A DNA stretch of 63,742 nt, counting the filler. It is 8 parts of 8 records of this genome, joined end to end, with 100 filler letters (N's around TTAATTAATTAA, not from the genome) between each part and the next. Parts side by side here need not be neighbours in the genome. Positions count along the whole stretch, not along the records: positions 6,279 to 12,723 come from SRR31147125_3874; 7 more parts are not named here. One strand, given 5' to 3'. The number at the start of each line of letters is the position of its first letter. The stretch's first letter is position 1. The notes below the pieces were generated by a model, which saw nothing but the letters and a program-made list of their open reading frames with translations, was not told the origin of the DNA and did not search any database. The position numbers were made by a program, and so were the translations under genes. Positions 4,869-31,678 of this stretch are shown here, piece after piece.

Positions 4869-5633
4869 GTGAAAAGAATTTATTTAAGCATATTATTGAT
4901 TGTTGTGGTTTTTGCAGCTGGTGCTCAAAAACAAAAGGTAAACTATCTTACAACCTTCGATGATAAGTTGTTTCATTTTGGTTTTACAATTGGGATGAAT
5001 GCACTCGATTTTAACGTTGTTAATTATAATCCCATTGGTGCAAATCCTGATTTTACAGATTACACTGTTCCGGGCACAAGCGAATCGATATATATAACTG
5101 ATATTATTCGTTCTGATGTTGCCGAAGTTATTCCCGGTTTTACTGTTGGAATTGTTTCGAGTATGCGTCTGTCAAATTCTTTTAATTTGCGCTTTTTACC
5201 CGGGCTCTCTTTTGGCGAGCGACGTATAACTTTTAACGTGCCGGTTGTCGATATTAATAATTACGGAGCCGATCCTCGGTATTACTCTGTTAAATCAACC
5301 TTTCTCGATTTCCCGCTGTTAATAAAATACAAAGCACAACGTATTAATAACGACCGCCCTTATGTTATTTTTGGTGGTGCGTATCGTCACGATATTTCGC
5401 GTACAGCACAAGAAGATCTGATAAAATTAAAGGACAGTGGTTTTTATGCTGAGATTGGTGGTGGCTGGGATCACTATTTCCTGTTTTTTAGATTCTCGGC
5501 TGAATTGAAATTTAGTTATGGATTAAATAATCAGCTGGGAGATTTGCCTTCGGATATTCAACGCCCCTATTATTCTCAATCAATTAAAGATTTACGCTCG
5601 AAGATTTTCACACTCTCTTTTCATTTCGAATAA
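4869..5633 (+). CDS. porT: PorT-family outer-membrane beta-barrel protein (T9SS/gliding)
   Basis: Signal peptide, FDDKLFHFGFTIG, LRFLPGLSFGER, C-terminal SFHFE; menG-porT-trmH synteny. Confidence 0.85.
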   Translation: MKRIYLSILLIVVVFAAGAQKQKVNYLTTFDDKLFHFGFTIGMNALDFNVVNYNPIGANPDFTDYTVPGTSESIYITDIIRSDVAEVIPGFTVGIVSSMRLSNSFNLRFLPGLSFGERRITFNVPVVDINNYGADPRYYSVKSTFLDFPLLIKYKAQRINNDRPYVIFGGAYRHDISRTAQEDLIKLKDSGFYAEIGGGWDHYFLFFRFSAELKFSYGLNNQLGDLPSDIQRPYYSQSIKDLRSKIFTLSFHFE

Positions 5634-6178
5634 GAATATTTTCCCCGCTTAAATTCCGAACACAGAATTGAAGTTGCAACAGATACATTCAGAGATTCTG
5701 CTTTACTGTTATTTTCAGAGAAATTCGGAATGCTTATTTGCTTTTCAATAAGTTGTTCAACGTCTTGTCTTATACCATTGCCTTCGTTACCCATAACCAG
5801 AATTGCTTTCGGTGCAAGCTGTTCGCTGTAAATATTGCTTCCGTTCATAAATGCTCCGTAAGTAGTTGCATTTGAATTGCCTGCAATAATTTTCATTTTT
5901 TCGAAAGCACACTCCCAAACGTTAACCCGGCAAAACGAGCCCATGCTGGCTTGTATTACTTTCGGATTGTATAAATCTACAGTATCGGTCGAACAAAATA
6001 GTTTGTTAATACCAAACCAGTCGCATATTCTTATTATAGTTCCAAAGTTTCCGGGATCTTGTATTCCATCTAAATATAAAACCAGCGCGTCGTCCAATTT
6101 TTCGGGTAACAACAACTGTTCTGGTATTCTGCAAATAGCAGCACTGTTTTGGGGCGTTTTTAACTGACTTATTTTTTT
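5621..6178 (-). CDS. TrmH/SpoU-family RNA 2'-O-methyltransferase (5' partial)
   Basis: LDGIQDPGNFGTIIR, MGNEGNGI and AESLNVSVA motifs; frame is open to the contig end (KKISQLKTPQ). Confidence 0.9.
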   Translation of the reverse strand, partial: KKISQLKTPQNSAAICRIPEQLLLPEKLDDALVLYLDGIQDPGNFGTIIRICDWFGINKLFCSTDTVDLYNPKVIQASMGSFCRVNVWECAFEKMKIIAGNSNATTYGAFMNGSNIYSEQLAPKAILVMGNEGNGIRQDVEQLIEKQISIPNFSENNSKAESLNVSVATSILCSEFKRGKYSYSK

Positions 6179-6278
6179 NNNNNNNNNNNNNNNNNNNNNN
6201 NNNNNNNNNNNNNNNNNNNNNNTTAATTAATTAANNNNNNNNNNNNNNNNNNNNNNNNNNNNNNNNNNNNNNNNNNNN
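6179..6278. other. Artificial contig linker N44-TTAATTAATTAA-N44 (first of seven; others at 12724, 22353, 31318, 37508, 50369, 57528)
   Basis: Identical 100-bp spacer with stops in all six frames; gene content and composition change abruptly across each one. Confidence 0.98.
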
Positions 6279-6397
6279 CTAAATCCCCCTGAAAGGGTGA
6301 CTTAAGAGGTCTTCGATGATTTTCGAAATAAATATTTGCATTTCCTCTTAAAGTCCTCCTTTTAGAGCCTTTACCGTGATTAACGGGAAGGATTTAG
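6279..6397. repeat. Nested palindromic REP/MITE-like element
   Basis: CTAAATCC (6279-6286) pairs with GGATTTAG (6390-6397); GACTTAAGAGG (6299-6309) pairs with CCTCTTAAAGTC (6344-6355). Confidence 0.55.
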
Positions 6398-6614
6398 GAG
6401 GTCGGTACTTTCATATCTATCTTCATTACCACATCTCAAAAAAAAAACCAAATTTAAGAGGTTGTTATGAAACATGGAATGCTTAATCGAATAATTGGCA
6501 CCATTGGGTATAATTTGTTTTTTATATAATAAGTAGCTGTGTTAAAATAGATTGTTTCTAAATTATGGTTTACTTACCTTTAATCCGTTATTAACCAAAA
6601 TAAACAGAACGACA

Positions 6615-7256
6615 ATGAACAAAGAGCAAGGAAATCACTATCGAATGTTTTTAAACACTCAAGAATTTTTAGATGACAACACTGTAACATGGACAACCAT
6701 TCCAAAAATTGTTACTTACAAAAACAATTTTGACGAGTTAATTTCCCGTATATCTGTTGTATCGGGTGAAGCTTCCCAAACAGTGGGTGTGCGCGATCGT
6801 AAAGGTATGCTAAAGGCACAGTTGGGGATAAAAGTTTCTTCTTTATCGGGTATCCTACAGGCATTTGCACATGACAACAACAACCCGGATTTAGCCAATG
6901 CTGCTGCCATTACAAAAAGTGACATTGAAAAGGCTAAAGAGCAAAACCTGGATGCCATGGTAAAAGCAATTGTAAAATTGGCTCAGGACAATCTTGCCGG
7001 CCTGGCAGATTTTGGTGTTACAGGGGGAACGTTAACTGAAATCCTCACCACACTCGAAGAGTTTAACGGGATGATTGGAAAACCCAGGAATATTCTGAAC
7101 GAGAAGTATGTAAAACTGGATTCATTGGAAGCACTATTTAAAGAGACAAACTCGCTCTTAAAGCTTAAAATGGATAATATGATGCTGATGTTCCGCGAGA
7201 CAAATCCCGAGTTTTATAATGGCTACCAAAGAGCCAGGGAGATTGTGGATATTTAA
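6615..7256 (+). CDS. Conserved Bacteroidota alpha-helical hypothetical protein
   Basis: Long open frame with probable start MNKEQGNHYRMF; amphipathic helices; ends PEFYNGYQRAREIVDI; followed by a terminator. Confidence 0.7.
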   Translation: MNKEQGNHYRMFLNTQEFLDDNTVTWTTIPKIVTYKNNFDELISRISVVSGEASQTVGVRDRKGMLKAQLGIKVSSLSGILQAFAHDNNNPDLANAAAITKSDIEKAKEQNLDAMVKAIVKLAQDNLAGLADFGVTGGTLTEILTTLEEFNGMIGKPRNILNEKYVKLDSLEALFKETNSLLKLKMDNMMLMFRETNPEFYNGYQRAREIVDI

Positions 7257-7271
7257 CTAAAAGAAAATAGT

Positions 7272-7317
7272 AAAAACCGCTTGCTGTTTCGGAAATTAGG
7301 GATGGGAGGCGGTTTTT
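7272..7317 (+). terminator. Probable intrinsic terminator
   Basis: AAAAACCGCTT...AGGCGGTTTTT stem just after the stop at 7256. Confidence 0.6.
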
Positions 7318-7357
7318 GTGATAAATTGTCTTGCTAAGAAAAGTCCGTACGACAAAT

Positions 7358-7434
7358 GCCAACGCACATTTGCAAGCCCAACTCCACATTCTGATTCTTT
7401 AGCTTGCAAAAGAGCCAAATTTTAGTCAACGCTC
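7358..7434. repeat. Structured intergenic hairpin element A
   Basis: GCCAACGCACA-TTTGCAAGC (7369-7377)-24 nt-GCTTGCAAA (7402-7410)-AGAGC; perfect 9-bp stem. Confidence 0.6.
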
Positions 7435-7468
7435 GTTCAGATTACTTTTAATAATAGTTAAATATCAG

Positions 7469-8409
7469 ATGAAATTAGATAACAAAACTAATCGTATAAC
7501 AAAAAGGCAAATTGAGATTTTAGAGTTAATGGCTAAAGGCTACAAAGAAGGAGATATTGCTAACGAACTAGGAATCTCTCATGTAGCACTTCGACGACAT
7601 AAATCATTGCTTTATCCAAGATTAGGTGTAAACAATTCTGTGTCAGCTGTTGTAACCGCGATTGATTTGGGATTAATTAAATGGGAATTAGCAACTAAAA
7701 ACAGAATTGAAAGAACTATAATTTTTGAACCTGAGTATATACAATCCGGTATTACTATTCTAAATTATTTTTCTACAATACTTCAACAAAAAAACCAGAA
7801 TATAATTCTGTAGTAAGAATTGAGCAAGAGGGATTAAAAGTAAGACTTCTTATTATTCCTGAAAAAGGAGATGAAATAGAGGTAATTGAAAAAACTTTGG
7901 AAGAATATGGGCTTGTAATTTCAGGTAAAATGAAAGTAACCGATTTTTTATCAGACAGTCTGCAAATTTTAGAACTAGAAAATAAACTTGAAATATCTAA
8001 ACTTGAATTACGTTTTGCAAAAAGACAATTAGAAATTGAAAGACAAAATCACAATGGCAGAATTGAACAAATTGAAAACGAGGTAAGCTGGTTACGAGGT
8101 CAAATTGGAACAACTTTATCAAATGCAACACAAATTTCGATAGAAACTAAGAATCATTTTAATGAAGAATTAAAACAATACTTTAATACCAACGATAAAT
8201 TACTTTTAAAATCATTGGAAATAATTGAGAAATTTCTAGAATTAAAAGAAATTAACACTAATGAAAAAGAAATTATTGAGGCTTTAAATAACGTTAAAAA
8301 GAAGAATCCTTCAATTTTAAATTATCTTTTGGAATTTACTCAAAAAACAATCAGTTCTGCTTCGGGAAAATTACTATATGATTTAATTAATTCATTGATT
8401 CAAAAATAA
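7469..8409 (+). CDS. LuxR-type HTH fused to an uncharacterised alpha/beta domain and coiled coil (split by an indel in the A-run near 7790)
   Basis: ITKRQIEILELMAKG...IANELGISHVALRRHKSLLYPRLGV is a LuxR HTH. Adding one base joins IERTIIFEPEYIQSGITILNYFSTILQQK to PEYNSVVRIEQEGLKVRLLI...IEKTLEEYGLVISGKM, in frame with ORF 7897-8409. Confidence 0.72.
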
Positions 8410-8450
8410 CCATAGCATATTTATATTAATACTATCACTTTTAGCTTCAA

Positions 8451-10515
8451 ATGAAATTTAATTATATAGACCAAAATAGCAAATATCTGGAAGAAGTAAT
8501 TGATTTAGGTAATAAACATTCTAAAACTTTAGGCTTTATGCCTGAAGGTGGATTTATTGACCACGCAAGAAAAAAATGGATTATTGTTGCGATTAAGGAT
8601 GATGTTGTTGTTGGATACTTATTATTCAGATTAGGGAAAAAGAATCTTAAAGTTAGTATTACCCATTTATGTGTTAAAGAAAGTTTTCGAGGACAGAATA
8701 TTGCTTTTAAACTAATCGACCAACTCAAAGAGAAATATCAAAATCTATTCACAGGAATTACATTAAGCTGTAGGACAGACTATACATATGCTTCAAAATT
8801 ATGGGAAAGGTATGGTTTTATAAAAAAAAATGAGGTTAGAAGTCGAAGTGTTGAAGAGAATTATTTAATAAAATGGTGGTATGATTTTAACAACTTGGAT
8901 TTATTTCAACTCTGTGAAAAGTATTCAGATAAAATTAAGGTTCTTTTGGATGCTAACATTTTAATTAAATTAAGAGACAAAAACTTAAAGGAATATAAAG
9001 AGGTTGAATCACTTTTAGCCGACTGGTTAATTGATGACGTAGATTATTATTTTGCCCAAGAAATGTTTAATGAAATTTGTCGTGATTCTGATAAAAGTCG
9101 GGCAAAACAAACAAGGATTTTTCTCCAAAATTTTCATGAAGCTAAATTTGACAAATCGGATTTTTTAGAAATTGAAAAAGAGCTTCAAATTTATTTGAAA
9201 GGAACATCAACCAATGATATTTCTGACAGAAAGCAACTTGCCGAGTGTATTGCAGCAGGCATTGAATATTTTATTACTGGAGACAGAAACATACTCACGG
9301 TAAAAGATATTATTGAGAGTACTTATAGTGTTCTAATATTAAACCCAACAGAATTCCTGCTTGAAATCGACCAATTGCAAAATTCAACAGAATATTACCC
9401 AATTAGATTAGCAGGAGCTATTCATACTACAAAAAAGGTTGATAAAACAGAGTAACCAACTTGCCGATAGGTTTCTCTGCAAATCTGAAGGAGAGTTGAA
9501 AACTGAATTACGAGAGAGAATTGAAAATCTCGTAAAAAAGAATAAAGATTCAGAATTGAAAGTTGTATTAAATCCTAAAAATGAAACGATCGCAGTATGG
9601 GGTAATAAAATAATTGACAACGTATTATATGTGCCATTATTAAGGGTGGTTGATAATAATTTATCAGTGACATTATTCACTCAGTTGATGACAGATATTG
9701 TTGAATATTCAATACAGCATAATATTTCAAAAATAGTTATATCGGAAAAATATATTTTAAAAAGCTGGCTTAACATTATCCAGGCTAAAGGTTTTGTGAA
9801 AATTGACGGAGATTGGATAAAAATCGTTCTTAATGATTTTATACCAAGCAGTCAATTATTGAAAAAATATCCCTTTGTAGAGGAACATCTTGAATCAGAT
9901 ATTTTAAAATTAGTTTCATCGAATGATAATCCAGAATTAAGGCAATCCTTATTATTTGAAATAGAAAGAAGATTCTTTCCATTAAAAATTGCGGATTTGG
10001 AAATGCCTTGTTACATAATTCCGATTAAACCTTATTGGGCAAGTCAATTATTTGATAAACTGGCGGCAAGTCAAATGATATTTGGTGCAAATCCTGAAAA
10101 AATCTGGAATCATGAAAATGTTTATTACAGAAATATAAAACCAGTTACTGAAAAATATCCAGCTCGTATTCTCTGGTACGTAAGTTCTCAAGATAGTTAT
10201 TCAAGGCAAAAATCAATTGTAGCATCTTCTTACCTTAATGACATGACTATTGATAAAGTTAAGAGCCAATTCAGGAAATACAAAAAATTTGGAATTTATG
10301 AATGGAAAGATATTTATGAATTAGCTAAATATGACATTGAGAATAAGGTGAAAGCAATTGTTTTTAGTAATACAGAAGTATTTCAGAAAGTAGTTCCTTT
10401 TGATAAAGTTACTGAGATTCTTTTGTCAAATGGATATAAAAGAAATACTTTTACGTCACCTTTAGAGGTAAACAAAGATGTATTTAAAAGCGTTTATGAA
10501 TTAGCAAATATTTAA
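8451..10515 (+). CDS. GNAT acetyltransferase - PIN nuclease - degenerate GNAT - ASCH/PUA-like multidomain protein (split at about 9453)
   Basis: GNAT: ITHLCVKESFRGQNIAFKLI, ASKLWERYGF. PIN acidic residues: LLDANIL, QEMFNEI, DRKQLA, FITGDRNIL. Second GNAT-like region ends AKGFVK. C-terminal YIIPIKPYWASQLF...NVYYR...RILWYVSS...IVASS is ASCH-like. Confidence 0.82.
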
Positions 10516-10517
10516 TA

Positions 10518-10957
10518 ATGAGAAAGTTTCTGTTTATATCAATTAAACCTGAATTTGCTAATAAAATTCTGAGCAAGAAAAAACGTATTGAACTTAGAAA
10601 AAATAAACCAAGTGCTCGGATTGGTGATTATGTTTTGATTTACTCTACCCAGCCAAAAAAATCTGTAATCGGATTTGCAAAAATTAAAAATATAATTGAT
10701 TGTACCCCAAATGAAATGTGGGAAAATAATGCAGATTATCTTGGAATAGATAAGAATAGATTTTTTAATTATTATAACGGACACAAAAGAGCAATCGGGA
10801 TTGAATTATCTGATGTTTGCAAACTAAAGGTAAGTATTCCACTACAAGAAATTAAGAATACTTATCCAAAGTTTAGTCCCCCCAGACTTATAAATACATT
10901 CCTTATTTTACAGCTATAAAATTTTATAAGGGACATCTTGATTATGCCAGCGCATAG
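10518..10957 (+). CDS. Stand-alone ASCH-domain protein (indel in the C-run at 10878-10883; corrected stop at 10957)
   Basis: FISIKPEFANKILSKKKRIELRK, GDYVLIYSTQPKKSVIG. One extra C restores the typical ASCH ending FSPPQTYKY. Confidence 0.9.
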
Positions 10958-11020
10958 CCATGCACATTAAGCAAACGCACATATCAACCGCACAACCAAA
11001 TTTGCTTAAAGAATATGTCT
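10946..11020. repeat. Structured intergenic hairpin element B (related to A)
   Basis: GCCA-TGCACA-TTAAGCAAA (10967-10975)-25 nt-TTTGCTTAA (11001-11009)-AGAA; perfect 9-bp stem with the same flanks as element A. Confidence 0.6.
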
Positions 11021-11217
11021 TCCTGTGCCATGTGCTGACAGATAATAATACGTACAAAAACACAAAACTGCGCATTAAAAAATTTAGAGGAATGTGCTAT
11101 TTATAAGATCGGCATATTCAAAATAAACAAAAACTGTCTAATGATTTACTTTGAAACGACGAATATTCTAAATATATAACCATGCTTCATTATATAGGAT
11201 CCTGACAAAAATAGAAT

Positions 11218-12440
11218 ATGTGGTTTAAAAAGAAAATAGAATTATTCAATCATCCATTAATTGAAAAGGTGGATAAAGAGTTATCATCAATCTTGAAAGT
11301 TGATTTAATAACATCCAATTTAGAGATTTTGGAACGATTATCTAAGGAAGAACAAAAGCAGAGCGGAATAACATCTTCAGATTTACTCTTAATATATGAG
11401 AAAAAGAAAGAAGAATTGATGAAATTCACATGTTATTGCCACTCAAAAGAATCTAAAATTGAGCATATTGAAGAGTTTGCGAGTTCTGAAGACAGTATTC
11501 AACATAATCCTGATTTAACAAACATCGGATTAAGTAAAGGATTTTCAATTACCTACGCGATTTATTATTACTTTCTATCAAAAGGTGACAATGCAAAGCT
11601 AATGGATTATTTATCAGTTAGGCGAATCCCTTATTATAAAAAATTTCATGAAAGATTGCTTAATTATTTCCATGAATCTAAAGGAGTTATGTTGTCTGAT
11701 TCTTACATTCAATACGTATCAGGGTATCATAAAGAGAATGTTACAATTGAGGATATAGATAAAGCGATAATTGATGTTCAAAAAATGGACAAAGAGCATG
11801 GATTATTTTGGATTTCAAAGTTTGTAGAGAATGAAGAAGAATATGTTATTGAGGTTAATAAAGGATTAAAAATCTCAATTATTTACGAAAAAAAAGTAGA
11901 TATTCAATATAATTCGCAAGATTGGGATGAAGTAAGACTCTTTTTAAAAATGCATATAGATAGAAAATTTGAAGAAATAATTTCTCTTGTTACCGGCAAA
12001 AATGAGATACAGAAAAAAATATGGAGAAATAAATGGCTACATTGTATTAATGAATTAACTTCATTGGAACTCCAAAAAAATCTTGGCTAGATAAAACAAA
12101 TAAAAATCCACATTGGTCTTTTGTCGAATTTATGTGTTGTTATTTTGACGATTTGGTGATTGATGATAACTACAAGATCGAATTAACTGACGGTTGGATT
12201 TCAAAAAGTGAATTTGAAACAATTAAACCTTGGCATGAATTACTAAATAAATATGATTCACCTTGTAATGATGACTATGATGTAGAAGCAATTCTTGCTG
12301 ATAAAAAATGGCAAATGATTATTGAGGAAGGGAAAAAAGCAAAAAGTGAATTATCAAAATTATTGAGTATAGAAGAAAACCAAATTTTAAATGAGGAAAT
12401 TAATTATACCCAATTTATTAAAAAAATAACTAAAGCATAA
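11218..12440 (+). CDS. Hypothetical multi-module protein, possibly immunity-like (ORFs 11218-12090 and 12132-12440 joined by +1 A near 12078)
   Basis: Adding one A to the A7 run gives LELQKKSWLDKTNKNPHWSFVEFMCCYFDDL, continuous with the second ORF; about 407 aa. Confidence 0.6.
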
Positions 12441-12566
12441 TATCTTGTATACGAAATAACAGGCAATGTTGTGGAAATTTAGTTTTTTATTCTACTCAAA
12501 CTGTACAGTGTTAAAGAGAACATCAAGAAATCGTCTACTAACCATTCAATTTAATATCAGAAAAAA

Positions 12567-12723
12567 ATGGAAATAGATTACATTGGCATAAATAAAAAAC
12601 TCTGGAATAATAAAACTGAAATTCACTACAAGTCTGACTTTTATGATGTTGATTCATTCTTAAAAGGCAAAGACTCTTTAAACCAAATTGAGTTGGATTT
12701 GCTTGGAGACATTAGCGAAAAAA
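12567..12723 (+). CDS. Class I SAM-dependent methyltransferase, N-terminal fragment
   Basis: YIGINKKLWN...HYKSDFYDVDSFLKGKDSLNQIELDLLGDI is a typical N-terminus for this family; cut by the contig end. Confidence 0.7.
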
Positions 12724-12823
12724 NNNNNNNNNNNNNNNNNNNNNNNNNNNNNNNNNNNNNNNNNNNNTTAATTAATTAANNNNNNNNNNNNNNNNNNNNN
12801 NNNNNNNNNNNNNNNNNNNNNNN

Positions 12824-14376
12824 GGGGCTTGGAATATTTTAAAGCAAATTATCACACCATAGATAACTTAAATGTTTTTCCTGTGCCTGATGGTGATACA
12901 GGTGTTAACATGCTATTGACATTTCAACCTGCAATTGAAGCAATGTTGGAAAAAGATGATAATACCTTCGACGCCATATTGAGTACCCTGCAGGAAACTT
13001 GTACCATGAACAGTCGTGGTAATTCGGGCTTTATCTTATCACGTTTTGTTTCCGGTTTTACCGAAGTTGTTCTTAAATATGGTGAATTTACACCTGAGAT
13101 CCTGACAGAAGCTTTCAATCATGGGAATTTTCTTTCAAGAACCTCGGTATCAACACCACGTGAAGGTACCATGCTGTCTGTTTTTGAGGCAGTAGCTCAT
13201 GCCATGAAAGAAGCAAAGTCGGAAACGATACTGGATCATTTTACTTTAGCTGTAGATGCCGGAATGAAAGAGGTTTTTATTTCACCTGAGAAGTTACCTG
13301 TGCTTAAAAAAGCAGGGGTTGTAGATTCCGGGGCCTTAGGTTTTGTATTCATCTTGGAAGGTGTCAGACGTAAAATGGCGGGCGAGGGAATTAAGATCGA
13401 AGACGAATCGGAATACCGCTTTGAGCCCGACGAAGATTCAAACATTGAAGAACTGATGGAAATATCTCACCGCTATTGTACGGAATTGACCATACGTCGC
13501 GGTGAAAATAAGATCGAAAAAGATCTGGAAACCTATTTAAATGAGATCGGTGATTCAGTGGCCCTCCTTATTAATGACGATATTATTAAATTACATGTAC
13601 ACACCAATACACCCGATGAGGTTATTGAGGAACTGAGCGTTTACGGATCTGTAGAAAATAAAAAGATCGAAGATATGCAAAAGCAGATCGAAGAAGAATT
13701 CGCTCGCTTTCAGCACGAAAATGAGATCGGAGTTCTGGCGTTGGTCCCGGGTGAAGGTTTCCGTAGTATTTTGCATGATTTTGAGCCTGACTTGGATGTT
13801 CTGGTTTATGGTAAAAATCTTCCAAAGACTGGCGATATTTTGAATCATGTCAATCAAATGCCTTATGACGTGATCATTGTTCTGGCAAACGATAAAAATA
13901 TTATTCCGGCTGTTCAGTTGGTAAAAAAAGAGACCTCAAAACATATTGAGATCTTTCCCAGCAAGAATGTGATCCAGGGTGTAGCCGCGATTATGGGTTT
14001 TGTTAAGAATGCCTCTTGGGAAGAAAATCTTACTCAGATGAATTCTTCCATGGAGTTGGTAGACAGTATCTCGGTATATCAGAGTATTAAAGACTCGAAA
14101 TTCGCCGGTATTGAAATTCCTAATGGACACTACTTTGCAGTGATGAACGGGAATGTGATCGCAGTGGATCCGGCTTTTGATCCGGTGGTTCTAAAAGCTA
14201 TTCGCAGCGCGGAACCGGATATGAGAATGAATATATCTTTCTACTATAACGATAAAGTCGATCCCGAAAAACTTCAGCCCATCACCAAAGAACTTGAGGA
14301 AGAATTTGAAGATCTTGAATTTGATGTGCGCTACGGTGGGCAACACACGGCTTTATTGCTTATCGGATTGGAATAA
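12824..14376 (+). CDS. DAK2-domain fatty-acid kinase subunit (FakA/YloV-like), 5' partial
   Basis: LNVFPVPDGDTGVNM, SRGNSG, GVVDSGALG, YCTE, KLHVHT and GGQ motifs. Confidence 0.93.
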
Positions 14377-22351: not shown

Positions 22352-22452
22352 TNNNNNNNNNNNNNNNNNNNNNNNNNNNNNNNNNNNNNNNNNNNNTTAA
22401 TTAATTAANNNNNNNNNNNNNNNNNNNNNNNNNNNNNNNNNNNNNNNNNNNN

Positions 22453-23217
22453 AAAAGCAAAATGGGATTTATGCCATTTAAAAGATTTAACATGCCGACA
22501 TCAAGTGATCAAGGGGATGTGATGATTTCTAAAGGTAAATGGAAATTCTCATTTAAACATGAAAAAAATCATAGACATTTAGAAGTGAGTATACCTCACT
22601 TTAAGGATAGAGATGATTTAGAAGTTGATATCTATCTCAATCAAATGATAGATGACTCAATGGTCATTGCAACTCCTTTTGAAAAACCAACACAATTTTA
22701 TTACAATCAAAAAATCAATTTACTACAATCAACTGGAACACTAAGTCTTGGTGATGAAATATATGATTTTAAGGGTTGCTATGGGGTGCTCGATTGGGGA
22801 AGAGGCACCTGGAGTTATCATAACACTTGGTATTGGGCAAGTTTATCAGGTAAACAAGGCAATCAATATATTGGGTTTAACTTAGGTTATGGTTTTGGTG
22901 ATACATCTAAAGCAAGTGAAAACATGTTGTTTATTGATGACAAAACGTATAAGTTAGAAGACGTAGTTTTCAATATTCCTAAAACCAATCATCAATATGA
23001 TTATTTAAAACGATGGACATTGACATCTAAACAAAAAAACATTTATTTAGAATTTCAACCGATTATCGATAGAAATGCTTACACAAATGTTCTAGTAATT
23101 AAATCTGATCAACATCAAGTGTTTGGGTACTTTAATGGTTATTTTATCATTGATAACAAAAAAATTGAAATAAGTAATATGATAGGATTTGCAGAGAGAG
23201 TTGAAAATAAATGGTAG
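22453..23217 (+). CDS. DUF2804-family protein (5' partial)
   Basis: MVIATPF...FYYNQKIN, LDWGRGTW, GFNLGYGFGD...EN, SDQHQVFG and AERVENKW motifs. Confidence 0.8.
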   Translation, partial: KSKMGFMPFKRFNMPTSSDQGDVMISKGKWKFSFKHEKNHRHLEVSIPHFKDRDDLEVDIYLNQMIDDSMVIATPFEKPTQFYYNQKINLLQSTGTLSLGDEIYDFKGCYGVLDWGRGTWSYHNTWYWASLSGKQGNQYIGFNLGYGFGDTSKASENMLFIDDKTYKLEDVVFNIPKTNHQYDYLKRWTLTSKQKNIYLEFQPIIDRNAYTNVLVIKSDQHQVFGYFNGYFIIDNKKIEISNMIGFAERVENKW

Positions 23218-23235
23218 TTAAGATAATAAGCAATA

Positions 23236-23270
23236 TAAAAACCAACTATATTTTTTATAGTTGGTTTTTA
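23236..23270. terminator. Bidirectional intrinsic terminator
   Basis: 15-bp perfect stem TAAAAACCAACTATA / TATAGTTGGTTTTTA between convergent genes. Confidence 0.75.
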
Positions 23271-23277
23271 AATAGCG

Positions 23278-24228
23278 TTAATGATACATAAGTTCTATAC
23301 CGGCATAATAACCAGTATCATCAAAAATAAGTTTTTTATGATGGTAGAGTTCAACTTCTACATATCCAGATAATCCTTCTTTAATTTCATGGTCCATTTT
23401 ACCTTTATGTGGTGATTTTAATTGAACAATAGCTTCTTGATAAGCTTTAATGATTAATCGATATGAACGCTTAGTAATCTCAATTGATGTTAAGTGATCA
23501 TTAATACGATTGACTTTAACTTTACTGAAATTATAAGTGGAAAATCTATAGTGTTTATGATTGACATATAAAGATGCAATGAGTCCGTTGAATTTTAATT
23601 TTAAAAATGGAATGATCGCATATGAAAACATGAGTGAGTCGGATGGATGTTTAAAATGATTAGATTGAATCCAAATGTATTTAGACGGAAAAGATTTGCC
23701 ATAATCTTTTTCTATGTATAAATGAGTCTGATCGAAATTTAAGGATTGTCCTTGATATGTAAGATGACCGCGTGCTTTTGAATCCATAGAAATGACACCA
23801 TGGTTGCATTCCATAAAAGGCATATATGCAAATGGACCCATAATTGTTGGTTGGTATAAGTTAGTAGGTATATCTTGATGATCATATATATCTAAGTCAC
23901 CTTTTAGAATCAATCCATCTTGATGAATATTCAAAGATATGAAGTCTTTAGAAAATACGTTATCTTTAATAGAAATATAGAAAAGGATTTTATGAGATGA
24001 AAAATCAGATATATCATATCTCACATAATGGGTAGCTATTGAATGATCTTCATGATTAGTTATAAAAAATTGAATAAAAGCATGAGGATCATCGGTATTT
24101 AAACTAATACCGGGTATCAATGCAAGACTAAATTTTCGATCATGTGTAAGGCACTTATAGTACCAACCTTCAAAATAGTTCTTTTTATTAAGATGTCCTT
24201 GAAATTTTGCTTGATCAAATATTGACAT
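23278..24228 (-). CDS. Tocopherol-cyclase-family protein
   Basis: YFEGWYYK, IMGPFAYMPFMECNHGVISM and YIEKDYGKSFPSKYIWIQSN motifs. Confidence 0.82.
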   Translation of the reverse strand: MSIFDQAKFQGHLNKKNYFEGWYYKCLTHDRKFSLALIPGISLNTDDPHAFIQFFITNHEDHSIATHYVRYDISDFSSHKILFYISIKDNVFSKDFISLNIHQDGLILKGDLDIYDHQDIPTNLYQPTIMGPFAYMPFMECNHGVISMDSKARGHLTYQGQSLNFDQTHLYIEKDYGKSFPSKYIWIQSNHFKHPSDSLMFSYAIIPFLKLKFNGLIASLYVNHKHYRFSTYNFSKVKVNRINDHLTSIEITKRSYRLIIKAYQEAIVQLKSPHKGKMDHEIKEGLSGYVEVELYHHKKLIFDDTGYYAGIELMYH

Positions 24229-24373
24229 AGAATTTCCTTTTTTATGATATATAGATTTATTATAGCATGTATGAATATAGTACCAGATGATTATGTTTAT
24301 GATATCAGATGCAATTATATTTTATTGGTGCTATTATATGTATGAATAAGTTAGATAGAAGGAAGGTACACAT

Positions 24374-24709
24374 ATGATTAAACATTTAAATTATGCAAAT
24401 ATATTAGATTTAACGAAAGAAGTTGATTATCAAAAAGGACAAGTTGTGTCTAAGACGATTACAAAATCTAAGTATGTAAATGTTTCACTTTTTGCATTTG
24501 ATCAAGGCGAAGATTTATCACCACATACAACTGCAGGTGATGCTTTAGTACAAGTTTTAGATGGTGAGGTGACAATCACTATTGGTGATGAGTCATTTGA
24601 TTTAAAAACAAACGAATCAATTGTTATGCCTGCAAACGTTATACATGCAGTGTATGCGAAAAAAGCATTTAAAATGTTGTTGACTATTGTTTTTAATCAA
24701 AACATTTAA
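24374..24709 (+). CDS. Cupin-domain protein (Cupin_2)
   Basis: LFAFDQGEDLSPHT...MPANVIHAV. Confidence 0.88.
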   Translation: MIKHLNYANILDLTKEVDYQKGQVVSKTITKSKYVNVSLFAFDQGEDLSPHTTAGDALVQVLDGEVTITIGDESFDLKTNESIVMPANVIHAVYAKKAFKMLLTIVFNQNI

Positions 24710-24773
24710 AGCAGATTTATAGTAATAAGACATTCAAAAGAATATGAGTGATTTTTGTAGATAGGGGTAATTC

Positions 24774-25238
24774 ATGACAAAAAATGATTATATTAAAAAA
24801 TTAAATTTAGAAAAACATGTAGAAGGTGGATGGTTTAAGGAAGTGTATGCATCTGATACCATCTATAATCATCGACCAACGATGACATCTATATATTTCT
24901 TATTAGATGATCAGAACTTTTCTGCATATCACAAATTAACTGCAGATGAAGTGTGGTATTTTCATGATGGACAAACACTTCATATATCTATGATTGATCC
25001 AGATGGTAAATTATATGATATTAAACTAGGTAAAAACTTAAATGATGGAGAAGTGCTTAGTTTTACTGTACCAAAGGGATGGATATTTGGATCTTATGTT
25101 GAAAAAGGATTTGCAGTTGTTAGCTGTGCTGTATCTCCGGGATTTACATATGAAGATTTTAAATTATATACACATGATGAACTTATTAAAAAGTATCCTC
25201 AAAATATAATGATGATAAACAAATTAACCAGAGATTAG
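24774..25238 (+). CDS. Cupin DUF985 (Cupin_5) protein
   Basis: HVEGGWFKE, TSIYFLL, DEVWYFH and SCAVSPGFTYEDF motifs. Confidence 0.9.
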   Translation: MTKNDYIKKLNLEKHVEGGWFKEVYASDTIYNHRPTMTSIYFLLDDQNFSAYHKLTADEVWYFHDGQTLHISMIDPDGKLYDIKLGKNLNDGEVLSFTVPKGWIFGSYVEKGFAVVSCAVSPGFTYEDFKLYTHDELIKKYPQNIMMINKLTRD

Positions 25239-25244
25239 GGAAAT

Positions 25245-25270
25245 GGAAAGTGCTGACACTTTCCTTTTTA
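25245..25270 (+). terminator. Intrinsic terminator
   Basis: GGAAAGTG-CTGA-CACTTTCC followed by a T-run. Confidence 0.7.
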
Positions 25271-25308
25271 TTATGACAAAATAGCGTTATAATTATGATA
25301 TAAAGGAT

Positions 25309-26669
25309 GTGATGGCTATTAAAAATTTATTGGAATCCCAAAAAGCATATTTTAAAACTAATGTGACTAAATCATATACATTTAGAAAACAGCAACTCCT
25401 TCAATTAAAAGCAGCTATAAATACGTACCAATCTGAATTAGAAGAAGCATTATTTAAAGATTTGCACAAATCATCATTTGAAGCGTATACAACAGAAATA
25501 GGGTTTACTTTAAATTCTATAAGTGATGCGATTAAAACACTTAATAAATGGATGAAGCCTAAAAAGAAAAAAACACCATTTTTTATGTTTGGTGCTAAAT
25601 CATATGTATATCCGGAACCATATGGGCAAACACTCATTATTGGACCATATAATTATCCTGTGCAACTTGTATTGGAACCACTTGTTGGTGCAATCGCAGC
25701 AGGGAATACTGCAATCATTAAACCCAGCGAATTCACGCCACATGTTGAAAAAGTTTTGGTAAAGATGATAAGTGAAATATTTAATGAACAGTATATAAAA
25801 GTAGTGATAGGTGATTATAAAATCACATCATCTTTATTAGACTTAAGATTTGATTATATCTTTTTTACAGGAAGTACAAGAGTTGGTCAAATTGTCTATG
25901 AAAAAGCGGCTAAACATTTAACACCTGTTACACTTGAACTTGGTGGGAAAAGTCCTACGATTATTGATCGTTCTGCACATATTAAAGAAGCGGCTGAATC
26001 AATAAGTTTTGGTAAATTCTTAAATGCAGGACAAACATGTATCGCACCTGATTATATTTATGTGGATGAAACTGTGCATGATGAGTTTTTAGATGCGTTA
26101 ACTCAAGCGATTAAAAAACAATATCAGGATGAGACGCAATTTGGACATATCGTAAGTGAAAAACACTATGATAGAATTAATGGTTTAATCAATACAGATA
26201 AAGTTGTCTTTGGTAATAAACAAAGCAACAAAGATAATCGCATATCACCGACAATACTTGATCAAGTCACATGGGATGATAAGGTTATGCAAGAAGAGAT
26301 ATTCGGCCCAGTGTTGCCAATTTTAACATATCAGTCACTCGATGATTTGATTGCACTTTTAAAAGAAAAAGAAAAACCACTTGCTCTATATATGTTTCAA
26401 AAAATAAGAAAAACATTCACAAAGTACTATATGAGTTGTCATTTGGTGGTGGCGTGATTAATGACACTATTATGCACGTCAGCAATCCGCACCTACCTTT
26501 TGGTGGCGTAGGTCAAAGTGGACTTGGTGCATATCATGGACGTACATCCTTTGATGTATTTAGTCATCATAAATCTATCGTTAAAAGCACCTATCGATTT
26601 AAGATAAAAGTTGCACATCCTCCGTATACAACATTTAAAGAAAAACTCGTAAAAAACATATTAAAATAA
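25309..26669 (+). CDS. Aldehyde dehydrogenase, ALDH3/YwdH-like (1-nt indel near 26396)
   Basis: PYNYP, FTGST, LELGGKSP, NAGQTCIAPDY and EEIFGP motifs; adding one T gives YMFSKNKKNIH...SFGGGVIND...PFGGVGQSG. Confidence 0.92.
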
Positions 26670-26673
26670 AGAT

Positions 26674-26703
26674 AACACCCACATCAAAAATGTGGGTGTT
26701 TTT
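26674..26703. terminator. Bidirectional intrinsic terminator
   Basis: AACACCCACAT / ATGTGGGTGTT stem between convergent genes. Confidence 0.75.
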
Positions 26704-26707
26704 ATGA

Positions 26708-27526
26708 TTAAAATTGATAAGGATGTGCTTTGAAATAATGCATGGTATCTTGATAACCCCAATTGTATAAACTTAAAGCATGCTCTTTTGTAAAAGTTAA
26801 GACACTTTGTTCTTTATGGGTGTTTTTGATTTCATGGAAAATTGTATGCTGAGGAATCATGCATGTTGTATTTTTTGTGCCAAAAAATGCAGTACTGATG
26901 AGTATAATATCACTACACTTTTGATCAATTAATGGTTTGATGGGTGTATTATCTAAAACTCCACCATCATAGTATTTCAATCCATCAATGACTACTGGGG
27001 GAAATACACCTGGCATTGAGCATGATGCTTGAATAGCTTTGATCGCAGTTTCTTCATCAAGCGTATTGATATGAAGATAAGTTGCTTCGACATTTTTTCT
27101 AACACGATGGTTAATGGTTGTTTTAATAACTTCTCTAAAGCCAGAGTCTTCATGACCACTTTGTGTTAAAGAAATATAGAAATCAATGTTTTTTAATCTA
27201 TCTTTTTTAAAATGTCTTAGTAAAATATCATCCATACCTTGCATTGAGTATAAGCCTTGATTAAGTATATCTAGTCTTTTATCTTTAAGCTGTTGGATAA
27301 AGCTTATTTGTTCTCCTAATGGGTTTTCAGGCATGTTAAACCATAAGTCTTTTGCGACATTAATCGAATTTGTTGTAAGGATTGCAGCGTTAGCAGATCC
27401 AATAGATGCGCCAGATATAACTGAGACATGCTTATAAATACCTAAATCCTGTAGCGCTTGGACTGCTCCAATTTGGTATGCACCTCTTGCACCGCCACCC
27501 GATAAACATAAACCTAGTTTTTTCAT
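26708..27526 (-). CDS. Patatin-like phospholipase
   Basis: GGGARG, GASIG and DGG motifs. Confidence 0.92.
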   Translation of the reverse strand: MKKLGLCLSGGGARGAYQIGAVQALQDLGIYKHVSVISGASIGSANAAILTTNSINVAKDLWFNMPENPLGEQISFIQQLKDKRLDILNQGLYSMQGMDDILLRHFKKDRLKNIDFYISLTQSGHEDSGFREVIKTTINHRVRKNVEATYLHINTLDEETAIKAIQASCSMPGVFPPVVIDGLKYYDGGVLDNTPIKPLIDQKCSDIILISTAFFGTKNTTCMIPQHTIFHEIKNTHKEQSVLTFTKEHALSLYNWGYQDTMHYFKAHPYQF

Positions 27527-27612
27527 ATCATCACCTTCTATTTATATATTATACGCGTACAATGGGCATTTATGTCAATAAAAAACATCAACATGTGTTG
27601 ATGTTTTATAAA

Positions 27613-28317
27613 TTATCTTACTTTTTTCATAAAATCTTCTAAATTTTTTGTTTTTGGATGTTCCAATATATCTGGTTTGCCATGTTCAATGATATGTCCA
27701 TCTTCTAAGAAAATGACATAATCTGCAAAGTCTTTTACAAAACTCATGACATGGGTGACAAATATGAAATCTTTTCCTAATCCTTTTAATTCCTCAACCG
27801 CTGATAACACTTCATCTGTAAGTATTGGATCAAGAGAAGAGGTTGGTTCATCTAAAAATATAATTTCTGGATCTAATGCAAGTGCTCTTGCAAGAGATGC
27901 ACGTTGTGCTTGACCACCACTAACATTTTTAGGTAATTTATAATGTTGATCTCCTAAATGTAGTAAATCAAGATATTTATCTGCGATACGAGATGCTTTT
28001 TCAGGATCTACTTGTCTTGTTTTTTCAAGAATCAATGTAATGTTTTTCTTAAGTGATAAATGTGGAAATAAGTTGTGGTTTTGAAAAACAAATCCAATTT
28101 TCTTTTTATAACTAGAACTAGATACATCTTCATCATTAATGGATAAGCTACCTTTGGTTGCTTTTTCAAGACCACTAAGCAATCGAATTAATGTTGATTT
28201 ACCACTACCAGAAACCCCAATAATACCAATGGAATGGTGATTCTCAAGTGCAAAAGATAAATCTTTTAATACAGTTTTATCATAAACATGTGTTAAATGT
28301 TCGATATTTATTTTCAT
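27613..28317 (-). CDS. Polar amino-acid ABC transporter ATP-binding protein
   Basis: GVSGSGKST, SGGQAQR and LDEPTSSLDP motifs; ATG 28317 overlaps the permease stop. Confidence 0.92.
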   Translation of the reverse strand: MKINIEHLTHVYDKTVLKDLSFALENHHSIGIIGVSGSGKSTLIRLLSGLEKATKGSLSINDEDVSSSSYKKKIGFVFQNHNLFPHLSLKKNITLILEKTRQVDPEKASRIADKYLDLLHLGDQHYKLPKNVSGGQAQRASLARALALDPEIIFLDEPTSSLDPILTDEVLSAVEELKGLGKDFIFVTHVMSFVKDFADYVIFLEDGHIIEHGKPDILEHPKTKNLEDFMKKVR

Positions 28318-29078
28318 AAAGCATATTTCCTTTCTAGCCATTTCGTTGCAAATGATAGAGGGATTGTAATGATTAAATATAATACCCACATAATAATATA
28401 TCCTTCAACAAATGCAAATGTTTTAGATTGTGCGACTCTAAGTGAATAATAGAGTTCAGCGAAACTTAAAACATTTAATAAGGCACTACCTTTAATGATC
28501 ATAGAAAAATTGTTCATCATTGGTGGCATGAGTATACGAATAACTTGAGGAATAATAATATAAACATATCGTTGTGTTTTTGTAAAACCAAATAAATCCA
28601 TCGCTAAATATTGATCTTCAGAAATGCTGCTAATTGCAGATTTATATACATTCATCATATATGGGGACATATAAATGATTAAAGCTGTAACACCTAATAT
28701 GTTTCTTTGGTATGTACCAAATGCTGGACCAATTAAAAATGCTGTAATAATAATAAGTACAAGCAGTGGTGTACCATAAACGATTTCTTTAATAATATCT
28801 ATTAATGCAACAAAATATTTGATACGAGACATGGATAACAAATAGAAAACAAATCCTAAAACAAGTGATCCAATAAGTGCAATAATTGACACAAGTATTG
28901 TATTTAAGAAACCTTTGAAAATTAATGACTGATAAGGTGCAAAGGCTTCTAAATTAAACGCATCTGTTTGTCTTAAAACAATAAAAGCAATAAATGCAAT
29001 GATGGTTAAAAATGCGCCGATGTAGGGGATGATACGTGATAAAGTTGTCGAACGATTATCTTTTTCTGTCTTATTCAT
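28314..29078 (-). CDS. Amino-acid ABC transporter permease
   Basis: GTPLLVL, IIIPQVIR and IIKGSALL motifs; multiple TM helices. Confidence 0.9.
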   Translation of the reverse strand: MNKTEKDNRSTTLSRIIPYIGAFLTIIAFIAFIVLRQTDAFNLEAFAPYQSLIFKGFLNTILVSIIALIGSLVLGFVFYLLSMSRIKYFVALIDIIKEIVYGTPLLVLIIITAFLIGPAFGTYQRNILGVTALIIYMSPYMMNVYKSAISSISEDQYLAMDLFGFTKTQRYVYIIIPQVIRILMPPMMNNFSMIIKGSALLNVLSFAELYYSLRVAQSKTFAFVEGYIIMWVLYLIITIPLSFATKWLERKYAL

Positions 29079-29877
29079 TGATATAGAAGTCTAATCCGTA
29101 TTTTCCTAAGTTTTCTAAAATAACAGCATCCCAATTAGCTTTAAGTTCACTATATAGACCGCCTTCATCATTGAAGGTGTCAATGAAATCATTTGCTTTT
29201 TCTAACAAATCAGTATTACCTTCTTTAACAGCCATACCAATAGGGCTTGCGACAAAAGCATCCCAAAGGACCATCGTTGTATTAGGGTTAGCATTGTAAC
29301 CATTAACAACAGGGTTTGCACTCATAAGAAGTACATCAGCAGTACCTTGAGCAACACTTTCGATACCTGTTCCTAAGTCAGTCACTTCAGTCACTGTTTT
29401 ACCATAAGATTCAGGGATTGATGTTGATACTTGTGATGCAATACCAGTGTATTTTGTAGAATCAACTGCAAGTAGATCTTCAATAGTAGAATCTTCAGTT
29501 AAGCTATTTTCATCAGCAAAATCTTTATTAAGTAGTGAAATAATTTTAAAGTAGAAGTAAGGGTTTGAAAAATCAACAATTTCTTCTCTTTCATCAGTAA
29601 TACTCATTGAAGCGATAGCAATATCGATTTCTCCAGATTGTATCGCTGGAATGATTGCTGAAAATTCAGTATTTACAATTTCAACTTCTCTACCTAAATA
29701 TTCACCAAAAGCTAATGCTATATCTACAGATATACCTTCAGGGTCATTGTTTGTATCAACAGTTTCAAAAGGTGGGTATTGCAAATCCATACCAACTCTT
29801 AAAACATCATCTCTTTGACATGCGTTTAGTGCAAGAACGCTTGAAAAAATAAAAAGCACCATAAATAGTTTCTTCAT
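29071..29877 (-). CDS. Amino-acid ABC transporter substrate-binding lipoprotein (SBP family 3)
   Basis: Lipobox LNAC, YPPFE and MSITDERE...FSNPY motifs; GGAG RBS before ATG 29877. Confidence 0.92.
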   Translation of the reverse strand: MKKLFMVLFIFSSVLALNACQRDDVLRVGMDLQYPPFETVDTNNDPEGISVDIALAFGEYLGREVEIVNTEFSAIIPAIQSGEIDIAIASMSITDEREEIVDFSNPYFYFKIISLLNKDFADENSLTEDSTIEDLLAVDSTKYTGIASQVSTSIPESYGKTVTEVTDLGTGIESVAQGTADVLLMSANPVVNGYNANPNTTMVLWDAFVASPIGMAVKEGNTDLLEKANDFIDTFNDEGGLYSELKANWDAVILENLGKYGLDFYINE

Positions 29878-29993
29878 TATAATTCTCCTTTTGTTAAAAT
29901 ATATATATATATAAATTATATATATAGTCATTTTATCATGAGTGATATAAATTTATAAGCATGATGCTAAATAAAAAAATATCATAAAAAGTA

Positions 29994-30022
29994 TTGACAG
30001 TCTATACTATGCAATGTATAAT
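29994..30022 (+). promoter_or_regulatory. Consensus sigma70/SigA promoter overlapping a likely PadR operator
   Basis: TTGACA-17 bp-TATAAT; the imperfect palindrome ATACTATGCAATGTATAATAT overlaps the spacer and -10. Confidence 0.8.
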
Positions 30023-30043
30023 ATTGTTGAAAAGGAGGTATCT

Positions 30044-30352
30044 ATGAAACAACAATTAAAAAAAGGTGTTCTAGAGATTTTTGTTTTAGCCATCTTATCA
30101 AAAGAAGATTCTTACGGTTATAAAATCATCACAGATTTATCAAGTTACATAGATATGTCTGAATCAACGCTTTATCCTATTTTAAGAAGACTTGAAAAAC
30201 AAGAATTTTTAAAAACATATAATAGGATTTACAATGGTAGAAATAGGAAATATTATAAAATCACAATTCAAGGTGTAACAAAAATTGATGATTTTTTACG
30301 AGATTGGGAAGATATCAAAAAAATATATGATATCTTGACGAGTAGTAAGTGA
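30044..30352 (+). CDS. PadR-family transcriptional regulator
   Basis: QLKKGVLE, SYGY, ESTLYPILRRLE and RKYYKIT motifs; AGGAGG RBS. Confidence 0.93.
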   Translation: MKQQLKKGVLEIFVLAILSKEDSYGYKIITDLSSYIDMSESTLYPILRRLEKQEFLKTYNRIYNGRNRKYYKITIQGVTKIDDFLRDWEDIKKIYDILTSSK

Positions 30353-30357
30353 GGTAT

Positions 30358-31317: not shown

Positions 31318-31417
31318 NNNNNNNNNNNNNNNNNNNNNNNNNNNNNNNNNNNNNNNNNNNNTTAATTAATTAANNNNNNNNNNNNNNNNNNNNNNNNNNN
31401 NNNNNNNNNNNNNNNNN

Positions 31418-31543: not shown

Positions 31544-31678
31544 TTTTTTCTCCAACATGATAAATTTTAGCAGCTTACACAAATAAAAACTACCAGACTC
31601 TCACTTTATAAAAACCAAAACTAAAAAAATCGTCACACTTTTTAGGCATTTAAACACAATTGACGTTTTCATCTGCTT

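Follow-up and report, generated by a model that had tools for sequence, protein, structure and literature searches.

The window analysed here is a stretch of DNA of 63,742 nucleotides, made of eight parts of eight records that were joined end to end, each separated from the next by 100 filler letters; adjoining parts are not necessarily neighbours in the genome. The part at positions 6,279–12,723 (SRR31147125_3874) carries a pair of genes on the plus strand, which is the subject of this paper. A large gene (8451–10515) codes, over one frame break, for a 688-amino-acid protein that is intact in relatives, and a small gene for a stand-alone ASCH protein starts two nucleotides past the stop of the large gene. 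The large protein combines an N-terminal GNAT acetyltransferase domain, a PIN nuclease domain, a second, degenerate GNAT-fold domain and a C-terminal ASCH/PUA-like domain. The locus is very probably a member of a published class in which a PIN, a degenerate GNAT and a PUA/EVE-like domain are joined to an ASCH partner. The basic design has already been predicted in print, and the extra, intact N-terminal GNAT is the less documented feature of this locus.

As assembled, the pair reads as three open reading frames (ORFs) on the same strand, at 8451..9455 (ORF1, 334 amino acids), 9439..10515 (ORF2, 358 amino acids, in the +1 frame) and 10518..10919 (ORF3, 133 amino acids). The first-pass annotation, made from the letters of the sequence, had proposed a protein of about 690 amino acids after repair of one break at about 9453, with an intact-looking GNAT bearing an RGQNIA loop, a PIN domain with its acidic residues, a degenerate second GNAT and a C-terminal ASCH/PUA-like domain, followed two nucleotides past the stop by a second ASCH gene. 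This description is borne out at each of these points by the intact 688-residue relatives, which place the break at 9452/9453, and by the profile and structural matches given below. The end of the pair, put at 10957, holds only with a second read-through, at a run of C at 10878–10883, a break that the annotation lacked.

The N-terminal GNAT domain (8451..8891, plus strand) occupies residues 1–147 of the large protein. It matches Acetyltransf_1 (PF00583) with an E-value of 4.5e-10 and 40.2 bits against a curated Pfam cut-off of 20.7, and its motif A, of the R/Q-x-x-G-x-G/A type, reads RGQNIA in the window, with Asn at the Gly position, against a family consensus of RGxGxA. Score and motif together identify it as a GNAT, for which binding of acetyl-CoA is a prediction. 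In the full-length AlphaFold model of a relative (P0001; predicted local distance difference test score, pLDDT, 93.9; predicted template modelling score, pTM, 0.83), residues 1–147 match the N-terminal acetyltransferases Ard1, Naa50, NatC and RimI with Z scores of about 20 and root-mean-square deviations (rmsd) of 1.7–2.0 over 140–145 aligned residues, and the profile of the domain finds Ard1 among PDB sequences (E 1e-7). The structural and sequence matches listed are N-terminal and aminoglycoside acetyltransferases. The best NCBIfam match is RimI, at 40.8 bits far under the model's cut-off of 86.4.

The PIN domain follows at 8934..9380 (plus strand; about residues 162–310). The window's own copy matches PIN_3 only, at E 6e-4 and 21–22.6 bits, below the cut-off of 27, covering profile positions 1–114 of 115. 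Assignment to the PIN families (PF13470/PF01850) comes from the profile matches of relatives (of 59 compared, 46 match PIN_3, with E<=0.01 as the threshold and 3.6e-14 as the best value, and 21 match PIN) and from conserved acidic residues of the active site. D167, D259 and D278 do not vary at all, and conservation is at least 90% for N169, E204, E208 and T276; in the window they lie in the elements LDAN, E204/E208, SD259 and TGD278. Positions 1–140 of the PADLOC profile PDC-M11A also match this region. The PIN profile gave no match to PDB sequences at E<=1, and the 50 structural matches listed for the model of the whole 688-residue protein are all to GNATs, over residues 1–150. PIN_3 and VapC-like PIN domains are typically RNases.

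The second half of the large protein is encoded by ORF2, which has no Pfam match and was assigned from its AlphaFold 2 model (pLDDT 95.6). The second GNAT-fold domain (9439..9834, plus strand; ORF2 residues 1–132) is without the acetyl-CoA pyrophosphate motif. Its fold is clear, residues 1–131 matching GNAT structures at Z 11–13.3 (best 3d8p, Z 13.3, rmsd 2.4, 129 residues aligned), and motif A is absent from all 21 sequences compared, of which eight have and 13 lack the N-terminal GNAT. The corresponding position reads VDNNLSVT in the window, and the conserved glycine occurs in none of the 21.

The C-terminal ASCH/PUA-like domain (10000..10515, plus strand; ORF2 residues 188–358) is the most conserved part of the large protein. 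It has no Pfam EVE or ASCH match at E<=0.1, so its assignment is at superfamily level only. Its best structural match is ZmASCH (5guq_A; Z 16.4, rmsd 2.4, 141 of 143 residues aligned), with a Foldseek E-value of 2.6e-9; EVE/PUA-like chains match at Z 11–12. A profile–profile comparison with the small ASCH protein by hhalign gives a probability of 96.3% (E 1.8e-9), a relationship visible by this type of comparison only, since BLASTP of the small ASCH protein against ORF2 gives no match. In comparison with the small protein, the domain has a 17-residue insert and a tyrosine, Y559, facing the catalytic Glu, so that the canonical Lys/Glu dyad is lost. Searching PDB sequences with the profile of the domain gave no meaningful match (best E-value 0.028); short YYR...LW look-alikes in retroviral integrase fragments were dismissed as chance.

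The small stand-alone ASCH gene (10518..10957, plus strand) codes for about 146 amino acids on read-through and ends at 10919 as assembled. Its product matches Pfam ASCH (E 2.5e-7) and, more closely, PDC-M11B of PADLOC (E 2.5e-31). In the octapeptide GxKxxExR, K22, E25 and R27 are invariant among 51 sequences, as are Y42 and P122 elsewhere in the protein; the window has Lys in place of the Gly of the octapeptide, which many relatives keep. The small protein keeps the Lys and Glu of the GKER subgroup, to which it belongs, in contrast to the C-terminal domain of the large protein. Comparison had earlier been drawn with YqfB of E. coli, an N4-acetylcytidine (ac4C) amidohydrolase, and this is tenable at the level of the superfamily; at the level of the octapeptide it fails, the sixth position being an invariant Glu and not the Thr/Ser of the YqfB-type GK[T/S]R.

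The closest guide to the small protein is ZmASCH (ZMO0922, PDB 5GUQ/5GUS), a member of ASCH family 2. The small-ASCH profile matches it (5gus/5guq) over its full length with an E-value of 1e-31, and the two have in common the octapeptide GxKxxExR, a Tyr equivalent to Y47 and a PPQ[S/T] motif containing S128. ZmASCH is close to both ASCH domains of the pair, and it differs from the small protein in that it was studied alone, its gene neighbourhood not being discussed in its paper; ZmASCH may not be an operon partner. It was described there as a nucleic-acid-binding protein and a weak Mg-dependent nuclease for single-stranded RNA (ssRNA) (PMC5615036). According to the available text of a 2026 preprint, all 19 ASCH proteins tested, ZmASCH included, strip tRNA of ac4C in vitro, an activity that requires the octapeptide's Lys and Glu (10.64898/2026.02.27.708502).

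Two frame breaks interrupt the pair in the window. The first (9452..9453, plus strand) is a net gap of two nucleotides in the linker between the PIN domain and the second GNAT: ORF1 ends in ...VDKTE and ORF2 resumes with NQLAD, with one residue missing between them in comparison with three intact relatives. The intact 688-residue relatives are 90–93% identical to the window protein (the best, of 688 amino acids, at 93%), and a DNA alignment with the 90%-identical locus of a close relative, L001, places the 2-nucleotide gap at 9452/9453. The second break lies in the small gene, where the window has six C at 10878–10883 and a read-derived contig has one more. With this C added, ORF3 extends to a TAG at 10955–10957 and recovers the conserved FxPPQxY motif. 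In L001 and the other relatives the frame is kept, and L001 has no C-run that matches the one at window positions 10878–10883.

Contigs from three sequencing runs bear on these breaks. That of run X1 spans 8400–11000 at a depth of 33, and its sole difference from the window is one extra C behind 10877; it has no extra letters at 9453 and so shares the 2-nucleotide gap. Run X1 contains 99% of the sampled words of the stretch and is possibly the source sample of the window. The contig of run X2, from a related organism, has two more letters behind 9453 and shows 113 differences over 1659 bases, and that of run X3 has the extra C behind 10877, as in X1. We read the small-gene break as an assembly or consensus error, or possibly as slipped-strand variation in the length of the C-run. 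The 2-nucleotide deletion in the large gene of this strain is probably real, because the X1 contig carries it while lacking the small-gene break. Since it falls between the PIN domain and the second GNAT, the module is probably inactivated in this strain, or at best split into a GNAT–PIN half and a half composed of the second GNAT and the ASCH-like domain. Programmed frameshifting was considered and rejected, as relatives use one frame and the contig of a close relative is simply two letters longer.

Other copies also look decayed. At L035 (1044–5771) the large-gene match is spread over several frames, its halves lying some 2.4 kb apart; the large gene is split in L030 and L060, and the small gene in L014 and L057. 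Some of these decayed-looking copies may be assembly errors of metagenome bins.

The family is common, with hundreds of clusters at 50% identity, mostly from Bacteroidota. A search restricted to longer proteins found 289 relatives at E<=1e-3, and among the 120 matches listed all have 604–714 amino acids. An exhaustive search with ORF2 found 1157 cluster representatives at E<=1e-3; among the 150 matches listed, 103 are proteins of 660–725 amino acids matched at about residues 335–690, 14 have 491–645 amino acids (13 of these were aligned and are without the N-terminal GNAT), 27 are shorter pieces and six are longer. Judged by these lengths and alignments, the fused form is the norm.

Related loci were collected from contigs of one genome per species in a search with 30 closer sequences, which gave 62 loci. 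These are mostly from Bacteroidota and also from Actinomycetota, Verrucomicrobiota, Chloroflexota, Cyanobacteria, Desulfobacterales, Gammaproteobacteria and other taxa. At 55 of the 62 the large gene is accompanied by the small ASCH gene, directly downstream in 54 and upstream on the other strand in one (L046); the remaining seven stop at or inside the large gene, or hold a fragment only, and contain too little DNA for its presence to be judged. Pairwise identities between the small proteins track the identities obtained for every domain of the large one (r 0.87–0.91). This correlation is as tight as that from domain to domain, which indicates that the pair moves as a unit and carries no implication for binding between the two proteins.

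Among 401 evenly sampled genomes of the phylum, the large protein occurs in six, with one match each. In this sample of 401 the small-ASCH profile has matches in 21 genomes; the top six adjoin the large gene, and those in the other 15 are weaker matches to stand-alone or fused ASCH genes. The pair was found on three of 72,556 plasmid records and was absent from the 50,697 phage genome records searched. The pair is rare, patchy and accessory, as follows from its presence in six of 401 genomes and on three of 72,556 plasmids, its occurrence in many phyla and its position in a low-GC insert.

The published class to which the locus belongs was set out in several comparative studies. Matelska et al. 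(2017) described two families, PIN_15 and PIN_17, in which a PIN domain is fused to a GNAT-like domain without motif A and a PUA-like domain; in the available text these families are classed as VapC-like, are always found in an operon with a second PUA/ASCH protein, are sporadic in distribution and are called possible extended toxin-antitoxin (TA) systems (PMC5499597). Bell, Wolf and Koonin (2020) referred to "(PIN)-GNAT-EVE operons", noted the ASCH partner and reported that the operons are associated with type I restriction-modification (R-M) and further defence systems (PMC7641849). Each of the two papers refers back to Iyer et al. (2013). The order GNAT–PIN–GNAT–PUA was not found in the available text of either PMC5499597 or PMC7641849.

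The window shares with this class a PIN domain placed before a GNAT without motif A, a C-terminal PUA-like domain and a separate ASCH gene in the same operon, and the window family resembles it further in its sporadic occurrence, its association with defence genes and its annotation as acetyltransferase family proteins. Association with defence or R-M systems is seen for the family and not for the window's own neighbours. The window family departs from the class as described in its extra N-terminal GNAT, which keeps motif A, and the window, unlike some operons of the class, has neither a helix-turn-helix (HTH) on the small ASCH protein nor an AAA_17 ATPase. On the Nostoc plasmid pCENA543c (L064, 450–4411), the small partner carries the annotation "EVE domain protein" and is followed by an AAA family ATPase, which matches the description of some operons of the class.

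A form without GNAT is present in PADLOC as PDC-M11, of which protein A runs from PIN to an ASCH-like domain over some 376–501 positions and protein B is a small ASCH. PDC systems are 145 candidates nominated through guilt by embedding (Payne et al.; bioRxiv 10.1101/2024.01.29.577857), and the available text of that preprint gives no description of M11 itself; three papers found to mention PDC-M11 do no more than list it. M11A matches the two halves of the window protein with E-values of 2.6e-7 to 1.7e-6 and, among 30 intact relatives, is matched by 29 (best E 1.9e-16) in alignments that extend from PIN through to the C-terminal domain; M11B matches the small ASCH protein. The M11A match is a distant one, and the profiles leave the N-terminal 160 residues uncovered. 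The window copy also differs from the PDC-M11 candidates in not being embedded in a BREX, DISARM or type I R-M system. On sequence grounds the pair appears to be a distant relative of PDC-M11 with an extra, intact N-terminal GNAT. The earlier remark that such associations are in print and remain uncharacterised agrees with PMC5499597 and PMC7641849 as far as their available text goes; the novelty then attributed to the locus was overrated, given a named candidate system and three earlier comparative-genomics treatments.

Defence genes were sought among the 109 genes that immediately flank the pair in the 62 loci, the counts being raw ones. PADLOC profiles at E<=1e-10 place defence genes beside the pair in 18 loci, a figure that rises to 21 with ambiguous ATPase and controller matches. 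These neighbours comprise restriction systems of types I, IIG, III and IV as well as HmaC, HEC-05, Dsr1, AbiEi, NsnA, PDC-S37 and PDC-S72. Pfam adds HNH_5 endonucleases (eight loci), AbiH, RES, PLD and AAA_15, for a total of about 28 of the 62. Restriction or other defence genes thus adjoin the pair directly at some 18–28 of the 62 loci. On the Calothrix plasmid pCAL6303.01, the pair is flanked by an Eco29kI type II R-M system and a McrBC-like pair. A recurrent block stands upstream of the pair in six loci (L006, L012, L014, L019, L025 and L034) and consists of a protein of about 1100–1280 amino acids that clusters with Eco57I/IIG-type methylases, an SMC_N/AAA_15 ATPase of about 620–645 amino acids with weak mad3/LmuB matches and, often, an HNH_5 endonuclease of about 300 amino acids; this block may be a separate defence system.

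Such neighbours bear on a first rival explanation, modification-dependent restriction resembling type IV, in which the PUA-like domains would read modified phage DNA, the PIN-like domain would cut DNA or transcripts and the GNATs would be accessory or regulatory. Restriction systems often adjoin the pair, the Calothrix plasmid has a McrBC-like pair after the operon, and the C-terminal domain matches readers of modified DNA, among them the McrB N-terminal domain (Z 11.0), THYN1 with 5-methylcytosine DNA (Z 11.0) and PH1033 (Z 11.1). It has also been argued that ASCH proteins in such operons may bind modified DNA (PMC7641849, in the available text). Against this, both ASCH domains have the ssRNA-binding ZmASCH as their best relative in structure and sequence, the intact and conserved GNAT is left without a role, and PIN domains of the PIN_3/VapC-like type typically cut RNA. 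We consider this explanation decidedly unlikely.

A plain addiction (TA) module, which would stabilise genomic islands and plasmids without protecting against phages, is a second rival, and we judge it equally unlikely. The toxin-like GNAT and PIN domains are fused in one protein and the small partner, two nucleotides away, is tightly coupled to it. Plasmids carry the pair, integrases or resolvases lie near it in L016, L045 and L059, and the decayed-looking copies (those of the large gene in L030, L035 and L060, those of the small gene in L014 and L057, and the window's own) also fit an addiction module. The neighbours, however, are mainly defence genes and not mobility genes, and the GNAT-less form was detected embedded in defence systems, according to the available preprint text. 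Addiction and defence roles are not mutually exclusive.

In the window, the pair lies in an insert of low GC content (6279..12723), with 26–34% GC against 36–43% outside. As joined in the window, the insert is flanked by a SpoU methylase gene (5621–6115) and a FakA/DAK2 gene (12829–14376), both identified by Pfam. Neither an integrase nor a recognisable defence gene was seen in the insert in Pfam, NCBIfam and PADLOC scans, and the only family match among its other genes is a LuxR-type HTH (7469–7813). The LuxR-type HTH gene and a coiled-coil gene, at 7469–8409 just upstream of the pair, have counterparts of 78% and 65% identity in Tamlana (L052:3015–3920), about 6 kb upstream of the far more divergent pair of L052 (33–48% identical). 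This suggests that the HTH and coiled-coil genes form a separately mobile two-gene unit. A scan of the window found no tRNA, and a promoter and terminator scan of 7300–11400 was uninformative, with 26 promoter-like sites against 23.7 expected and no terminators.

Pairs of 44-N runs with 12 bases between them occur at 6179–6278, 12724–12823, 22353–22452, 31318–31417, 37508–37607, 50369–50468 and 57528–57627. The first two flank the low-GC insert, and others edge further low-GC stretches. Low GC content (24–33%) is also found at 23000–32000 and 37000–39000 in the window; the genes at 23000–32000 look ordinary and include cupins, an aldehyde dehydrogenase, a patatin and an ABC transporter.

A third rival holds that the pair has a housekeeping role in RNA modification, for example as a writer and eraser of ac4C in tRNA or rRNA, while its PIN domain would serve to process RNA. 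The combination of GNAT and ASCH recalls the writing and erasing of ac4C, ASCH proteins being reported as tRNA ac4C erasers in the available text of the 2026 preprint (10.64898/2026.02.27.708502), RimI is the best NCBIfam match of the GNAT, and some neighbours are related to translation, namely RF3 (L021), PrmA (L058) and a pseudouridine synthase (L001). The RimI score falls well short of its cut-off, however, the large protein occurs in only six of 401 genomes with relatives scattered over many phyla, defence neighbours are frequent, and the window copy lies in a low-GC insert and is broken in a strain that tolerates it. A housekeeping role therefore seems very improbable.

We conclude that the pair is probably a two-gene conflict module with a role in defence or as a TA system. 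This reading is supported by the strict linkage of the two genes, their patchy distribution and the frequent defence neighbours in relatives. The first-pass annotation had placed the locus among acetylation-linked conflict or defence systems, and its conflict reading gains from these three features and draws nothing from the window's own neighbours.

How such a module would most likely work can be sketched from its domains. The C-terminal ASCH-like domain, with its dyad lost, would bind RNA that is base-modified or structured, tRNA being the leading candidate, and this binding would bring the PIN nuclease into position to cut. The target acetylated by the N-terminal GNAT might be that RNA, an aminoacyl-tRNA or else a partner protein. 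The small GKER-type ASCH protein could gate or reverse these steps if it hydrolyses the acetyl mark, competes for the RNA or binds to the large protein. The pair would stay silent until the cell is infected or the small protein is lost.

Known systems offer functional parallels to these steps. DarT/DarG is an enzyme-reversal pair, in which the mark made by the toxin is hydrolysed by its partner; GNAT toxins of the TacT/AtaT type acetylate aminoacyl-tRNA, and VapC-type PIN toxins cut tRNA or rRNA. The likeness of the pair to DarT/DarG, TacT/AtaT and VapC is hypothetical and is drawn at the level of function. The partner also differs in kind, being an ASCH protein in place of the macrodomain of DarG or the ribbon-helix-helix (RHH) or HTH antitoxins of GNAT toxins.

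We infer from this architecture that writing, reading, cutting and erasing of an acetyl mark could form a single cycle, and regard this as a rather unlikely reading. In its specific form, an acetylation-based immune or TA cycle acting on nucleic acids, the GNAT would mark RNA (as ac4C in tRNA or as acetylated aminoacyl-tRNA), the dead C-terminal ASCH domain would read the mark, PIN would cut and the small ASCH protein would erase as the antidote; this version we consider unlikely.

Several observations weigh against these interpretations. The N-terminal GNAT most resembles protein N-terminal acetyltransferases, and no GNAT toxin of the TacT/AtaT/ItaT type appears among the 50 structural and 60 sequence matches listed, which are too few to rule out a relationship with such toxins. 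Because its nearest solved relatives acetylate protein N-termini and no known GNAT toxin is listed, a nucleic-acid or aminoacyl-tRNA substrate is a guess. The fourth position of motif A is Asn, and not Gly, in the window and its close relatives. With regard to the proposed eraser, ZmASCH was inactive on free ac4C, and its overexpression in E. coli gave no significant drop in tRNA ac4C, as reported in the available text (10.64898/2026.02.27.708502). The E-value of ZmASCH to the small-ASCH profile is, furthermore, within the range of the stand-alone ASCH genes in the 15 genomes that lack the large protein. No recognisable defence gene was found among the window's own neighbours in Pfam, NCBIfam and PADLOC scans, and at about half of the related loci the pair adjoins housekeeping genes, for instance those for arginase, RF3, DnaE and carboxyl transferase. 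The large gene is probably broken in this strain, as seen in the read-derived contig X1, whose agreement on the 2-nucleotide gap is not fully independent if X1 is the source sample. Finally, none of the modules of the class had been characterised according to the available text of PMC7641849, and the PDC systems are stated to be untested in that of their preprint (bioRxiv 10.1101/2024.01.29.577857).

The window copy itself contributes only a natural example of such a module decaying, and what the locus means for biology lies with the family. The earlier class has been known since 2013, and as its single GNAT was considered dead, it lacked a writer for the acetylation of nucleic acids that had been proposed. 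The present family supplies a conserved GNAT with motif A, together with a partner from the ASCH subgroup reported to remove ac4C from tRNA. If the acetylation cycle were true, the pair would be an RNA-acetylation counterpart of DarT/DarG and the first biological context for ASCH eraser enzymes. The intact N-terminal GNAT makes the old prediction testable, and may point to a physiological role for the ASCH superfamily and for ZmASCH.

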